A stretch of DNA of 64,000 bases from Mustelus asterias. Taxonomy: Eukaryota. Numbering within the stretch: the first letter of the stretch is position 1; each line of letters begins with the position of its first letter. The stretch spans positions 20,956,001 through 21,020,000 of the forward strand of contig NC_135804.1 in assembly GCF_964213995.1 (NCBI RefSeq). The letters are read 5' to 3'. The notes beneath the pieces were generated by a model. It did no database searches and was not told the origin of the DNA. It saw only the letters and a list, made by a program, of their open reading frames with translations. Positions 15,518 to 47,634 of this stretch are shown piece after piece. The translations under genes and the position numbers were made by a program.

Positions 15518-15892
15518 GGTGTGTACATTAAAGCATGGCATTTTGATGAGGCAGCAGGCATAAGTGGCCTGTAACCAGGGCAAGGGACAAAGGTAGCACA
15601 GATGCCAGCTCAACAGAGGGCAAGATCACTCATGATTTATGCTGCAGAGGACTTAGAGGAGAACTTAATTGCTTAAATGGTTGTGGGGGGGGCGGGGTGT
15701 GGTGCACATGTACAGGAAAATGCTGATAGGTTAATAAGTATACGCACAGAAATGTTTGCTGCATTATCAGACCTGCCGGAAAGCTTGTGGTCCCTGTCAA
15801 GAAACATAGAGGAGTCTGGCACCAACCTTGTATCTTGCCTTATGCAGAGTTTGCCACCCATTGCTTCCAGCATGGATGTGGTAACCAACTTT

Positions 15893-17190
15893 AGGCGGCA
15901 TAGTGGCACGGTGGTTAGCACTGTTGCCTCACAGTGCCAGGGACCCGGGTTCGATTCCTGGCTTGGGTCACTGTCCGCATGGAGCTTTCACATTCTCTTT
16001 GTGTCTGTGTGGGTTTCCTCCGGGTGCTCCAGTTCCCTCCCACAGTCCAAAGATGTGCGGATTAGGTGGATTGGCCATGCTAAATTTGTGATTTTTATTA
16101 ATGACTTAGAGGAGGGGGCTGAAGGGTGGATCAGTAAATTTGCTGATGACACCAAGATTGGTGGAGTAGTGGATGAGGTGGAGGGCTGTTGTAGGCTGCA
16201 AAGAGACATAGATAGGATGCAAAGCTGGGCTGAAAAATGGCAAATGGAGTTTAACCCTGATAAATGTGAGGTGATTCATTTTGGTAGGACTAATTTAAAT
16301 GTGGATTACAGGGTCAAAGGTAGATTTCTGAAGACTGTGGAGGAACAGAGAGATCTTGGGGTCCATATCCACAGATCTCTAAAGGTTGCCACTCAAGTGG
16401 ATAGAGCTGTGAAGAAGGCCTATGGTGTGTTGGCTTTTATTAACAGGGGGTTGGAGTTTAAGAGCCGTGGGGTTATGCTGCAATTGTACAGGACCTTGGT
16501 GAGACCACATTTGGAATATTGTGTGCAGTTCTGGTCACCTCACTATAAGAAGGATGTGGAAGTGCTGGAAAGAGTGCAGAGGAGATTTACCAGGATGCCG
16601 CCTGGTTTGGATTGTAGGTCTTATGAGGAAAGGTTGAGGGAGCTAGGGCTGTTCTCTCTGGAGCGGAGGAGGCTGAGGGGAGACTTAATAGAGGTTTATA
16701 AAATGATGAAGGGGATAGATAGAGTGAACGTTCAAAGACTATTTCCTCGGGTGGATGGAGCTATTACAAGGCGGCATAACTATAGGGTTCGTGGTGGGAG
16801 ATACAGGAAGGATATCAGAGGTAGGTTCTTTACGCAGAGAGTGGTTGGGGTGTGGAATGGACTGGCTGCAGTGATAGTGGAGTCAGACACTTTAGGAACA
16901 TTTAAGCGGTTATTGGATAGGCACATGGAGCACACCAGGATGATAGGGAGTGGGATAGCTTGATCTTGGTTTCAAATAAAGCTCGGCACAACATCGTGGG
17001 CCAAAGGGCCTGTTCTGTGCTGTACTGTTCTATGTTCTATGTTCTAAATTGTCCCTTAGTGTCAGGGGGACTTGCTAGGGTAAATGCATGGAGTTATGGG
17101 GATAGGGCCTGGGTGGGATTGAGTTTGGTGCAGACTCAATGGGCCAAATGGCCTCCTTCTGCACTGTAGGGATTCTACGATTCTATGATT
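15893..17190 (+). mobile_element. HE1/V-type SINE split by a young CR1 LINE
   Basis: SINE runs to ...ggccatgctaaatt (16086) and resumes at ctaaattgtcccttagtgtc (17044). Confidence 0.88.
16087..17043 (+). mobile_element. Young 5'-truncated CR1 (HER1-like) LINE with an open RT C-terminus
   Basis: FINDL...ISKFADDTK (RT catalytic FADD) is open to the stop at 16963; (ttctatg)n tail; 7-bp TSD ctaaatt (16080-16086, 17044-17050). Confidence 0.93.
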
Positions 17191-21159: not shown

Positions 21160-21290
21160 AAAGCAAAATACTGTGGATGTTGAAATCTGAAATAAAAACA
21201 AGAAAATGCCAGAAAGACTCAACAGGTCGGGCAGCATTTGTGGAGGGAGAGAAATGGAGTTAATGTTTCAGGTCAGTGACCTTTGATCAG
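21160..21290 (-). mobile_element. Penelope-like pLTR fragment with degenerate hammerhead core
   Basis: Minus strand ctgatca-aaggtcactgacct-gaaa-cattaac; homologous to 1761-1887. Confidence 0.55.
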
Positions 21291-23079: not shown

Positions 23080-23386
23080 CATCTGTGGCCAGTTCATCCT
23101 GGGTCAGGTTCTGTTTCCATGGGGCTAGGCCAATCCACATGTCTTTGTCCGCCTCCAGGTGCCTCTGTATAAACTCTTGAGTCTTCTCATTCAGGATGAA
23201 AGCGAGATGTCCCCCGCCCCGCTCACACCATCTCTGAGCACCCTGGAAACTACGCTGCATCTGAACGACTTCATAGCAACTCTTTTGAAAGGCCAGCTGT
23301 TGCTCCAAGCAGGGGCTCGCAGCTGCTCGTGGGCTTAAAGTAAAGGTGAAAGTTAAAGAAAGGAGAAATTTCAAATCCAGCCTCAT
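23080..23386 (-). CDS. PKD1L2: PKD1L2 (polycystin-1-like 2) coding exon 1: signal peptide plus N-terminal half of the C-type lectin domain
   Basis: ATG at 23386 with A at -3. Encodes MRLDLKFLLSLTFTFTLSPRAAASPCLEQQLAFQKSCYEVVQMQRSFQGAQRWCERGGGHLAFI...WIGL, a hydrophobic leader followed by CTLD motifs resembling vertebrate PKD1L2. Phase-1 donor G|gtaggt. Confidence 0.88.
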
Positions 23387-24569: not shown

Positions 24570-24657
24570 TGATGAAATAAAAACAGAAATTGCTAGGAAA
24601 TTCAGCGGGGAGAAACAGAGTTAACGTTTCGAGCCCATATGACTATTCCTCAGAGCA
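24570..24657 (-). mobile_element. Penelope-like pLTR fragment with hammerhead-like core
   Basis: Minus strand ctgagga-atagtcatatgggctc-gaaa-cgttaac: CUGANGA and GAAA intact, palindromic AACGUU stem III, stem I degraded. Confidence 0.55.
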
Positions 24658-25085
24658 ACAACTTTGCTTTTATTTCAAGCCGATGACATCTTTCAAAATC
24701 ACATTTGTAAATGAAGCTTGTTTTCAGTTATTGTTCAGTGTTGGATAAGTATGTAGCAAACAAAATACAAGGATCGCACACTCTTGTGTCTGTCCAGAGA
24801 AAGCAATCAGGACTGGATGAAGGAGTCAGAGAGACAGTGGGATGGAGGGGAAGAGGGAGAATGGAGTTGAATTTATCCTCTATCTCCTCTTTTTAGTGAT
24901 TAGGCATTGGTTCTCTTTACACAATACACCTTTAGGGCTCAAGTGAGATGTGTCATTGTTGTAAATCAGTTCATGAAGCTTTAAATTATCAATCTTTATT
25001 GTTTCAACCTTTGCCCTGCTCAATGTCAGGAGATCTGCAAAATTAGCATACCTCACCTTTCCGTGAAAGATAAAAGCAGAATTGC

Positions 25086-25187
25086 TCTGAGAAAGGGTCA
25101 TCCTGACCCGAAACATTGGTTGGATTCTCTCTCCACAGATACTGTCAGACCTGCTCAGATTTTCCAGCATCTTCTGTTTTTATTTCA
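25086..25187 (+). mobile_element. Penelope-like pLTR fragment with degenerate hammerhead core
   Basis: ctgagaa-agggtcatcctgaccc-gaaa-cattgg followed by sequence homologous to 1761-1887. Confidence 0.6.
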
Positions 25188-25674
25188 CTTGGCACTTGTT
25201 GAGTGGCTGATAGCTAGAGATAAGCCAAGATTACTCTTCCAAAAACATACTTAATTGACTGGTAAACAATTTCAGATGTCCTGAAGTCATGGAAGATATT
25301 ATGTTATATAATATATAAGCTTTGACATGTAATTTTGTCAGCAATGCTCAAGTTCTGTACTGCCAGATGACCATTAATATTATATCATATTAATTATATT
25401 TTTTATATTTGCTTTACAGAAGAAGTGACAAGAAAAATTGGCCAGAGTAGGGCAGTGGATGTTGTATTCATGACTTTAGGAAAACCTTCGATAAGGTTCC
25501 TCATGGCAGGCTGATACAGAAGGTGAAGCCATCTGGGATCCGAGGTGAGCTGGTAAGATGGATACAAAAGTGGCTTGGGCATAGAAGTGAAGATGCCGGC
25601 GTTGGACTGGGGTAAACACAATAAGAAGTATCACAACACCAGGTTAAAGTCCAACAGGTTTATTTGGTAACAAA

Positions 25675-25716
25675 AGCCACTAGCTTTCGGAGCGCTGCCC
25701 CTTCATCAGGTGAGTG
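25675..25716 (-). ncRNA. Minimal type-I hammerhead ribozyme motif, PLE-associated, core intact
   Basis: Minus strand CUCAC-CUGAUGA-A-GGGGC-AGC-GCUCC-GAA-AGCU-A-GUGG: conserved boxes, stem II, palindromic AGCU stem III, CUA cleavage triplet, UCAC/GUGG stem I. Confidence 0.7.
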
Positions 25717-26624
25717 GGAGTTCTGTTCACAAACAGGGCATATAAAGACACAAACTCAATTTACAAAATAATGGTTGGAATGCGAGTCTTTACAGGTAAT
25801 CAAGTCTTAAAGGTACAGACAATGTGAGTGGAGAGAGTGTTAAGCACAGGTTAAAGAGATGTGTATTGTCTCCAGACAGGACAGTTAGTGAGATTTTGCA
25901 AGCCCAGGCAAGTCATGGGGGTTACAGATAGTGTGACATGAACCCAAGATCCTGGTTGAGGCCATCCTCATGTGTGCAGAACTTAGCTATCAGTCTCTGC
26001 TCAGCGACTCTGCGTTGTTGTGTGTCGTGAAGGCCGCCTTGAAGAATGCTTACCCGAAGATCAGAGGCCAAATGCCCGTGACCGCTGAAGTATTCCCCAA
26101 CAGGAAGAGAACACTCTTGCCTGGTGATTGTCGAGCGGTGTTCATTCATCCGTTGTCGTAGCGTCTACGACAGACGTTACGCTACGCTATGCAGACGCTA
26201 CGACAACGGATGAATGAACACCACTCGATAATCACCAGGCAAGAGTGTTCTCTTCCTGTTGGGGAGCACTTCAGTGTTCACGGGCATTTGGCCTCTGATC
26301 TTCGGGTCAGCGTTCTCCAAGGCGGCCTTCACGACACACAATGCAGAGTCACTGAGCAGAAACTGATAGCCAAGTTCCACGCACATGAGGACGGCCTCAA
26401 CCGGGATCTTGGGTTCATGTCACACTATCTTGCCTGGGCTTGCAAAATCTCACTAACTGTCCTGTCTGGAGACAATACACATCTCTTTAACCTGTGCTTA
26501 ACCCTCTCTCCACTCACATTGTCTGTACCTTTAAGACTTGATTACCTGTAAAGACTCGCATTCCAACCATTATTTTGTAAATTGAGTTTGTGTCTTTATA
26601 TGCCCTGTTTGTGAATAGAAATTC

Positions 26625-26665
26625 CACTCACCTGATGAAGGAGCAGCGCTCCCAAAGCTTGTGGC
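26625..26665 (+). ncRNA. Hammerhead motif in the other arm, catalytic box mutated
   Basis: ctcac-ctgatga-aggagcagcgctcc-CAAA-gcttgtgg: GAAA has become CAAA (loss of G12). Confidence 0.55.
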
Positions 26666-28249
26666 TTTGGCTACCAAATAAACCTGTTGGACTTTAACCT
26701 GGTGTTGTGAGACTTCTTATTGGGCATAGAAAGCAGAGAGTAGCAGTGGAAGGTACTTTTTTAACTGGAGATCTGTGATAAGCGGTGTTCCACAAGGATC
26801 AGTGCTGGGGCCTCTATTGTTTGTAATATATATATAAATGATTTGGAGGAAAATGTAAGTGACCTGATTAGTAAATTCGCAGATGATCAAAAATTGGGGC
26901 AGTGGCGGATAGTGAGGAGGATTGTCAGAGCATACAGCAGGATATAAATCAGCTGGAGACCTGGGTCGAAAGATGGCAGATGGAATTTAACCCAGATAAA
27001 TGTGAGGCGATGTTATTTGGAAGGTCTACTACAGAAGGAAAGTATACAGTAAATGGTAGGGACCTTAGAAATATTAGCACAGAAAGGGATCTAGGTGTGC
27101 AGTTCCAGATGTGCAGATAAAGGTGGCAACTCAGGTGACAAGGTAGTCAAGAAGGTATACGGCATGCTGGCCTTCTTTGGTTGGGGCATTGAGTATAGGA
27201 ATTGAAAAATCATGTTGCAGTTGTATAAGACTTTGGTTAGACTGCATTTGGAGTATTGTGTACAATTATGGTCGCCACACTACCAGAAGGTTGTTTTTTG
27301 CATTGGAAAGAGTGCAGAAGAGATTTATCAGGATGTTGCCTGATTTGGAGGATATGGACTATGAAGAAAGGTTGAACAAACTTGGATTGTTTTCATTGGA
27401 GCGTTGGAGGATGAAGGGGACCTGATAGAGGTTTGCACGATTATGACAGTCTTGGGTAGAGTAGATAGTCAAAATCTTTTTCCCAGGGTCGAAGGGTCAA
27501 TTACTAGGGGGCATATGGTGAAAGTGAGAGAGGGAAAGTTTGAAAGAAATGTAAGGGGCAAGTTTTCACACAGAGGGTGGTGAATGCCTGGAACGCGCTG
27601 CTGGAGGAGGTGGAGGAAGCAGATTCTATAATAACGTTCAAGAGGCATCTGAATAGATACATGAATAGGCAGGGAATAGAGAAACATGGACCACGTAGAG
27701 GTATCTGTGTCGGCCCAGACTTGGTGGACTGAAGGGCCTGTTCCTGTGCTGTACTGTTCTTTGTTCTTTATACATAAGTTCTTCTTTCTTCCTGTTTGAC
27801 AATAAAATTGCAAATTGCAGCCACTTGCTGTTTGATTATTCCCTTTATACCCTTGACCAGAAAGGACAAATAGAAAGCAAAAGAGCCAAAGATGGATGTA
27901 ATTGCAGGACATTGAAAACTAATGATCTGATGAAAGGTTCTGCTATAATTTTGTGACAGATTTATGTGAAATTGGATTAAATAACCTCAGGCTGAAACAT
28001 TGTTTGGCATCCACTTTCAGCAATGGCTTGTGACTTGCCCTGTTGAGGGAGGCAGTTTGCAAACTTCATGCTGCCTCCTCGTTTGTCTAGTTGTAGTTAA
28101 TTGCAGGGTTCGACCCACACGATCAACTAGCTGCATGCTCAGCAGGGAACCCAACAGCGTGTGAGGCTTGGGGTTGTTCCAGGCAACCTGCCCCTTTAAA
28201 AGCAGCGCTACATTGACTGAAAGGAAGCTGCTGCTGACAGCTGATACTG

Positions 28250-41255: not shown

Positions 41256-41425
41256 TTATTGTTTTGTACTGAGCTCCTCTTCAGGGATGAACATGCCATG
41301 CAGGTCAAGATGCAAATCAGCACTAATTGAAGCACGGCCAAGTTCTTTAAAAGTCTTTGCATCAAGTACAAGTAAAAAGGAAGATTTCTTGGCATCAGTA
41401 GAAATGACGGAAGAAAGTAGAACAC
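41256..41425 (-). CDS. BCO1: BCO1 last coding exon (exon 11 equivalent) with stop codon
   Basis: GVLLSSVISTDAKKSSFLLVLDAKTFKELGRASISADLHLDLHGMFIPEEELSTKQ*; LHG is the fourth His ligand. Polypyrimidine tract plus cag| acceptor. Confidence 0.95.
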
Positions 41426-41528
41426 CTGAAAAAAAAATTCCAAATGTAACCTTCAACGTATTGCACATTTGGTGATCTTGCTAAAATATTTATTTTACAA
41501 AATGCTTTCAGCTGCAAATCGACACCGC

Positions 41529-46152: not shown

Positions 46153-47060
46153 TAGAACATAGAACAGTACAGCACAGAACAGGCCCTTCGGCCCACGATG
46201 TTGTGCCGAGCTTTATCTGAAACCAAGATCAAGCTATCCCACTCCCTATCATCCTGGTGTGCTCCATGTGCCTATCCAATAACCGCTTAAATGTTCCTAA
46301 AGTGTCTGACTCCACTATCACTGCAGGCAGTCCATTCCACACCCCAACCACTCTCTGCGTAAAGAACCTACCTCTGATATCCTTCCTATATCTCCCACCA
46401 TGAACCCTATAGTTATGCCCCCTTGTAATAGCTCCATCCACCCGAGGAAATAGTCTTTGAACGTTCACTCTATTTATCCCCTGCATCATTTCATAAACCT
46501 CTATTAAGTCTCCCCTCAGCCTCCTCCGCTCCAGACAGAACAGCCCTAGCTCCCTCAACCTTTCCTCATAAGACCTACCCTCCAAACCAGGCAGCATCCT
46601 GGTAAATCTCCTCTGCACTCTCTCCAATGCTTCCACATCCTTCTTATAGTGAGGTGACCAGAATTGCACACAATATTCCAAATGTGGTCTCACCAAGGTC
46701 TTGTACAGTTGCAGCATAACCCCACGGCTCTTAAACTCCAACCCCCTGTTAATAAAAGCTAACACACTATAGGCCTTCTTCACAGCTCTGTCCACTTGAG
46801 TGGCAACCTTTAGAGATCTGTGGATATGGACCCCAAGATCTCTCTGTTCCTCCACAGTCTTCAGAACCGTACCTTTGACCCTGTAATCCACATTTAAATT
46901 AGACCTACCAAAATGAATCACCTCACATTTATCAGGGTTAAACTCCATTTGCCATTTTTCAGCCCAGCTTTGCGTCCTATCTATGTCTTTTTGCAGCCTA
47001 CAACAGCCCTCCACCTCATCCACTACTCCACCAATCTTGGTGTTATCAGCAAATTTACTG
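46153..47060 (-). mobile_element. Young 5'-truncated CR1 LINE, same subfamily as 16087-17043
   Basis: Open 264-aa frame nearly identical to the C-terminal part of ORF 15677-16963; same 3' UTR. Confidence 0.93.
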
Positions 47061-47634
47061 TGCAGTGGGATGGCTAGAGGGCACGAGTAATAGGCCCCTC
47101 AAAGATATTTTCAAAATACTCCAAAACCTACCTTTCGGGAATGCAAGCCTTCCAGCAGTGTTTACATTAAATACACCTCTGAATGCCCAAGAAACTGGAT
47201 TTGCCATGCCTTCTACTTGCACATTGATATGAGGGTAGCACAGTGGCACCGTTAGCACTGCTGCTGCCTCAGTGCCAGGGACCCGAGTTCAATTCCGGCC
47301 TTGGGTGACTGTGTAGAGTTTGCACATTCTCCCTGTGTCTGCATTTGACACACATCCCTCTAAATCTTTCCTATCCATGTACCTGTCAAAATATCTTTTA
47401 AATGTTGTAATTGTACCCGCCTCTATCACCTCCTCTGGAAGCTCCTTCCGTGTGCACACCATCCTCTGTGCCCCTCAGGTCCCTGTTGTTTTGAGATGAA
47501 TGATCTAACTGGCTGACGGAGTAGGCTTGATGGGCTGAATTGCCTACTTGTGTTCCCTTGTTCCTAGAACCTTCTCCTAATGCTTGTATTAACTGCTGCC
47601 ATTGTGGAGATGCTTTGGGTTAAGGAAAACTTAC

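Follow-up and report, generated by a model that had tools for sequence, protein, structure and literature searches.

In the window (the whole stretch of 64,000 nucleotides of Mustelus asterias analysed here), positions 25587-26719 hold a 5'-truncated, non-coding insertion of a Penelope-like element (PLE), of Neptune type by its motifs, composed of two arms, one tail and a 12-bp target-site duplication (TSD). The insertion is very probably a stub that decays neutrally and has no local function, and its two arms would have arisen by priming on both strands of the target. The locus is a clean example of an already published layout.

Structure of the insertion

The element is bracketed by two identical 12-bp repeats (25575-25586 and 26720-26731) and lies in a decayed CR1 LINE, whose reverse transcriptase frame resumes past the TSD (...LG[I/H]... 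before the element, KQRVAVEG after it) and gives weak RVT_1 matches on either side (E 0.0016 and 0.0008). Repeats of at least 11 nt were found in only 3 of 300 random pairs of places. One TSD thus surrounds both arms inside a CR1 that reads on across it, in agreement with the single insertion event put forward in the first-pass annotation of this DNA. Two younger CR1-like reverse transcriptase fragments with long open frames are also present in the window (15677-16963, plus strand; 46229-47098, minus strand).

The arms are arranged head-to-head, at 25587-26166 on the minus strand and 26189-26719 on the plus strand, and are identical at 502 of 530 aligned bases (94.7%), with 20 transitions and 8 transversions between them. 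Relative to the minus arm, the plus arm lacks 3 bp after 26337 and 15 bp after 26428; the second gap removes the stop codon, as annotated earlier, and the frame is then open to 26551. The minus arm contains the 3' end of the element (end of the GIY-YIG ORF, pLTR, hammerhead and tail), the last 80 codons and the stop of the endonuclease being located at 25922-26164 (minus strand) and colinear with the longer copies L009, L014 and L021. The earlier description of the arms as GIY-YIG/pLTR sequences is correct for the end of the endonuclease ORF, but each arm keeps only its last 80 amino acids, downstream of the GIY and YIG words. The plus arm does have a shorter 3' end, which had been listed among its defects; this is not damage, the difference being the family's normal 35-nt tail, carried by the minus arm only (25587-25621, minus strand) and mostly 28-39 nt long in the family.

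The arms begin at most 4 nt apart, are near-symmetric and are joined by a filler at 26167-26188. The proposal that this filler was patched from fragments of the arm ends stands, since 20 of its nucleotides fall in words of at least five letters drawn from these ends (mean of 7.4 in shuffled sequences, 20 being attained by 14 of 5000 shuffles); its length is corrected to 22 nt, the last four letters quoted earlier being element sequence. At the left junction, a 57-nt read contig spans the boundary at the depth of the unique flank (two runs from one sample, possibly the assembly's own), and no empty-site joint was listed in the reads at the left flank and junction, such contigs showing presence and not absence.

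Family identity

A search of the same genome with the 3' part of the element returned 1,746 candidates, and the 40 that were scored were 96-98% identical to it. Longer copies continue 5' into a GIY-YIG endonuclease and then into a reverse transcriptase, matched by RVT_1 in copy L014 (E=1.7e-8), so that the copies colinear with the window arm contain one ORF with the reverse transcriptase followed by a C-terminal GIY-YIG endonuclease. By inspection, the translations of L009 and L014 show VYLIRC-G/R-KGC-PEAW-YIGET, then NEH/NEC and EHF (CCHH), and a CX4CxxC linker, PCHSNLCKTC, was recognized by eye between the two domains in L009, L014 and L020. A CCHH motif with two cysteines between GIY and YIG is the criterion for endonuclease-bearing (EN+) PLEs, and the combination of CCHH with a CX2-5CxxC linker marks Neptune, which is paraphyletic in the same study, the linker being absent in Penelope and Poseidon (PMC8557442). 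The C-terminal GIY-YIG domain with both features, as described for the Neptune clade, is likewise found in the longer shark copies. Protein relatives, with 66-92% identity, are annotated in several sharks.

The profile check suggested earlier for GIY-YIG and PLE domains gave a divided answer. The Pfam scan contained no GIY-YIG match on the window fragment, L009 or L014, and a PDB sequence search with the endonuclease gave one chance match (E=0.49), whereas the RVT_1 match on L014 and the Atlas look-alikes of the C-terminal part of L009 (0.96-0.97; PF01541 on 31-34% of the members in 2 of the 3 clusters shown) point to the expected domains. Taken together with the CCHH motif, the linker and the layout of the longer copies and of the window, these data uphold the Penelope-like family call. 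The element is a 5'-truncated Penelope-like stub, by sequence-based membership of the family; the Neptune type is a putative assignment by motifs alone, with which Nematis or another CxxC-bearing clade is also compatible.

Two other classes of element were considered. A MITE or another DNA transposon is ruled out because the arms are the 3' ends of a retroelement, still contain pieces of its ORF and are truncated at varying 5' positions. Animal non-LTR retrozymes (bioRxiv 10.64898/2026.07.22.740005) are also PLE-derived, hammerhead-bearing and non-autonomous, and have been found in a chondrichthyan too, but they are tandem direct repeats, whereas the locus consists of a single inverted pair, which has a TSD and retains parts of an ORF, and the only two family matches in the window are on opposite strands; the retrozyme assignment was therefore rejected.

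In copies L009, L014, L020 and L029, a second frame over the reverse transcriptase region is open for 100-145 codons and is Ser/Thr-rich in several copies; it is probably a by-product of codon use.

Hammerhead motifs

The first-pass annotation had described minimal type-I hammerheads on the two arms, one intact and one broken, and every feature that it listed was found. The minus-arm motif (25677-25713, minus strand) comprises CUGAUGA at 25709-25703, GAAA from 25688, a palindromic AGCU and a CUA triplet, with a stem I of 4 bp, a bulged A and a stem II of 5 bp, and its cut is predicted after 25681. In the plus-arm motif (26628-26664, plus strand), the change of GAAA to CAAA corresponds to G12>C at 26653, and position 17 is also modified (A>U at 26660). 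Over the core (C3-A9, G12-A15.1, U16.1 and H17), the minus arm has every required base and the plus arm departs from it at G12. The bulged base after A9, the pair G10.1-C11.1 and the palindromic 15.2-16.2 are present, and the minus-arm motif is the only strict minimal hammerhead in the 64 kb, none being found in 50 shuffles. The minimal hammerheads of metazoan PLE pLTRs have the same core (CUGANGA/GAAA/UH), extra base between 9 and 10.1, G10.1-C11.1 pair, palindromic 15.2-16.2, short stem I and lack of a real stem III, with a stem II of 7-8 bp against 5 bp in the shark motif (PMC4209133). As judged by eye, the stems covary across families, the sister subfamily having the same core with a different stem II that still pairs; a second hammerhead family of the genome has a GRGUC/GACUC stem and a palindromic ACGU. 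The hammerhead model search that had been recommended, performed as an Rfam scan, returned no hammerhead family among its 7 matches at E<=10, presumably because the motif has no stem III.

The minimum free energy structure predicted for the monomer is not a hammerhead (-13.6 kcal/mol, versus -8.9 kcal/mol for the form with stems I and II), and two copies of the motif are predicted to pair through the palindrome region. The self-cutting motif is thus real in sequence and likely inactive at this locus. We propose that G12 of the plus-arm hammerhead would have been replaced through a CpG point mutation, that the minus-arm hammerhead may still be intact by chance, and that, in a read-through RNA, the ribozyme would be buried in the fold-back duplex, without a dimer partner, and would not cut.

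Abundance and divergence of the family

The exact 34-mer of the intact hammerhead is present in 8,045 copies in the genome, or one per 457 kb, the reversed control giving none, and this one variant alone approaches the about 9,000 reported for Xenopus (PMC4209133). A further 1,013 family motifs differ at G12 only, like the plus arm; among the first 100 listed, 98 are G>A at a CpG, so that the loss of G12 is mostly what neutral decay predicts. The minus and plus arms of the window diverge from the family majority by 2.8% (15 of 545 sites) and 3.8% (20 of 527 sites), respectively; both values are near the sample median (3.4%, interquartile range 2.7-4.6) and neither arm stands out.

The frequency of the layout was estimated in two samples. 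The first comprises 30 loci and is biased, since these were taken for their similarity to the window; apart from the window's own locus, 29 remain, and 13 of these show the head-to-head layout, with one tailed arm and a duplication of 10-15 bp. The second sample, which has biases of its own, consists of the first 60 loci with an exact intact hammerhead, all in the first 26.5 Mb of contig C1, where 29 of the 60 anchors sit in tight head-to-head pairs; with bystanders counted, 34 loci contain 37 such pairs. A TSD of 11-19 bp was found in 32 of the 37 pairs (against 3 of 300 in the control), and exactly one tail was found in 35 of them, one pair having none and one having two (p=5e-9 versus an independent choice). 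Among the partners of the 29 anchors, the hammerhead is intact in 10, core-broken in 8, mismatched in a stem in 5 and truncated in 6. The form seen at the locus, an inverted copy with one tailed arm and a TSD, is the commonest of the family in this genome. By rough extrapolation from these 26.5 Mb of one contig, about 1,070 loci would combine an exact and a core-broken motif. The duplex of the window (530 nt) is longer than those of all 37 sampled pairs (maximum of 493 nt).

Several variants were encountered beside these counts. A 24-mer gave 52,624 matches, the majority of which come from the sister subfamily (CUGAAGA core, CUU triplet, different pairing stem II) and often lie in head-to-head pairs (loci L091-L120), and the genome likely contains many tens of thousands of hammerhead-bearing PLE ends. 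Among the first 100 matches with a mutated G12, three head-to-head pairs (C1:166651337-166651521, C2:26422167-26422253 and C2:100683754-100685008) have an identical G12>A on the two arms, which hints either at insertion of RNAs whose hammerhead was already dead or at homogenisation between arms. A U16.1>G change in the core is common to the partner arms of L041, L050 and L075; they may belong to a subfamily that has spread with a defective ribozyme.

Origin of the paired arms

The general scheme of PLE insertions includes an inverted 5'-truncated copy with a tail of 30-40 bp at one end (PMC8557442, fig. 2 legend), and the one-sided tail with a TSD is described for the rotifer elements Pen2a_Av and Pen2_Av (PMC3846280). 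These EN+ insertions resemble the locus in their head-to-head arms, tail on one arm, short TSD, 5' truncation and choice of another retroelement as target. In the shark there is no full ORF between the repeats, the TSD is longer in the family (11-19 bp versus 8-10 bp in the rotifer) and, at the locus, the arms are nearly symmetric and separated by the 22-nt filler. Pairs of minimal hammerheads 100-700 bp apart on opposite strands have also been described (PMC4209133).

Minority alleles are common to paired arms at 13.6 per kb, against 3.7 (maximum of 7.9) when partners are shuffled (n=50 pairs), which indicates that paired arms come mostly from one source. The arms of the window agree at 18 of 22 family-diagnostic sites, and 3 of the 4 disagreements are common family alleles; one template for both arms is likely, two templates being compatible with the 4 disagreements. 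In the 35 pairs with one tail, the longer arm is the one without tail in 14 cases and the one with tail in 9, while in 12 the two are symmetric within 10 nt.

We propose the following sequence of events. The element's endonuclease would have nicked the two strands of the CR1 at positions staggered by about 12 bp, and both nicked strands would have served as primers for reverse transcription of a single source RNA, with an outer start (with tail) for one strand and an inner start (without tail) for the other. Both cDNAs would then have halted near the same point and been united by end-joining with templated filler. In vitro, with the Poseidon element PAc of Anolis, both target strands are cut and extended, two reverse transcription starts bound the tail and uncut RNA is the main template (PMC11167929). 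PAc belongs to a different clade and its start does not differ between strands, whereas exactly one tail is the rule in the shark pairs; the lack of strand preference reported there does not by itself explain this rule. The one-tail rule and the sharing of rare alleles suggest that priming from the two sides of the cut is coupled. For the family as a whole, we put forward, as a proposal with even chances of being right, that head-to-head PLE insertions result from coupled priming of both nicked strands on one RNA, the strands being forced to different starts; the presence of exactly one tail, the rare alleles common to both arms and the finding that the longer arm may be of either kind would all follow from it. 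In the literature, which was incompletely covered, neither a statement of this coupled model nor a description of the shark family was found.

Fold-back self-priming of a single cDNA, or of an antisense template, would yield the inverted arm without a second priming. This mechanism, proposed in PMC3846280, agrees with the near-symmetric starts of the window arms and of the 12 symmetric pairs, and the allele sharing fits it as well. In contrast, a fold-back copy of the tailed strand cannot exceed its template in length, and the tail-less arm reaches further 5' in 14 of the 35 one-tail pairs (the reverse in 9); the filler fits end-joining. We consider this origin unlikely, and two-strand priming followed by end-joining is preferred since either arm can be the longer.

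The 5' ends of the family copies do not accumulate strongly at the ribozyme cut. Among the short arms of the 60 loci, 4 of 19 (3 insertions) start at the cut site or one base before it. The refined genome count of candidate 5' ends at the cut site is 672; of 30 inspected, 5 were true truncations by script and 6 by eye, which corresponds to about 110-135 in the genome, against controls of 74 at 4 nt upstream and 262 at 4 nt downstream, the latter confounded by variants.

Possible effects of the locus

A transcript of the whole element is predicted to form 515-518 arm-to-arm pairs, with longest perfect runs of 112 and 74 bp, in line with the long hairpin foreseen in the first-pass annotation. 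On read-through, this hairpin could be a passive source of dsRNA and siRNA, or a substrate for A-to-I editing, and silence the family together with many sister loci; in D. melanogaster flies that had been transformed, Penelope siRNAs matched inverted regions (PMC3681739). The site, however, is intergenic by the exons mapped, and this copy would add little to thousands of sister hairpins, many of them likely intronic. Such a role is improbable here; it is compatible with a neutral stub and does not exclude it, and no feature singles out this copy.

An action on the neighbouring genes was also suggested earlier. The first coding exon of the downstream gene, on the minus strand, has its ATG at 23386, 2201 bp from the element, and encodes a signal-like stretch and a C-type lectin, followed by SUEL-lectin exons (73 of the 103 minus-strand frames were scanned); this architecture is consistent with PKD1L2, and the element does lie 2.2 kb upstream of this gene. 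A gene of the RPE65/BCO family is located on the minus strand too; its coding sequence ends in the exon at 41283-41426, which is separated from the element by 14.6 kb. The intact ribozyme is indeed on the same strand as both genes. The two genes are in tandem on the minus strand, from 23386 to 58104 of the window and beyond; human BCO1 and PKD1L2 are neighbours but divergent. Between the element and the PKD1L2-like ATG lies an older head-to-head element of another hammerhead-bearing family (24573-25187, decayed motifs at 24653 on the minus and 25087 on the plus strand), and a third relic is found at 21290 (minus strand) in the first intron. The genome contains 2,076 exact intact motifs of that other family.

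According to that suggestion, the intact hammerhead would cut BCO read-through or PKD1L2 upstream transcripts. Its intact core, its strand and its distance of 2.2 kb from the ATG are in agreement with such a role, and assisted cleavage in vivo is conceivable given that the Anolis PLE hammerhead cleaved only with the element's protein (PMC11167929). Several observations oppose it: (i) the genome contains 8,045 exact copies of the motif, and about 50 genes (20,000 being assumed) are expected by chance to have a same-strand copy within 2.3 kb; (ii) the last coding exon of the BCO-family gene lies 14.6 kb upstream of the site; (iii) no second same-strand family copy is present in the 64-kb window to act as partner, and minimal PLE hammerheads show no cleavage as monomers and weak cleavage as dimers in vitro (PMC4209133); (iv) the predicted duplex covers the intact ribozyme, sequestered by the other arm; and (v) the arm shows no extra conservation relative to the family. 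Moreover, the cleavage and dsRNA proposals conflict with each other, since, in a transcript of the minus strand, the complementary arm is synthesized before the ribozyme, all of which is predicted to be base-paired in the duplex. The pairing of an intact with a broken motif is itself common (8 of 60 anchors), and the special role attributed to the locus is not borne out. Cleavage acting on the neighbours is very improbable, and there is likely no special link to a neighbouring gene.

Lastly, long inverted repeats can be created by assembly, and 4 of the 22 diagnostic sites differ between the arms, but a fold-back chimera produced by the assembly, or a pair of independent insertions, is a reading already refuted, with next to no probability left, by the single TSD around both arms and the recurrence of the layout across the genome, together with arms 5.3% apart with indels and a read contig at flank depth across the left junction.

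Significance

By itself, the locus matters little: hammerheads near shark genes are expected by chance when one variant alone occurs every 457 kb and the sister subfamily is several times commoner. The presence of one tail per pair and the sharing of rare alleles between arms bear on the mechanism of PLE insertion, which is only partly worked out. If true, coupled priming would explain the signature of inverted pLTRs plus tail, and it could be tested with purified PLE protein.
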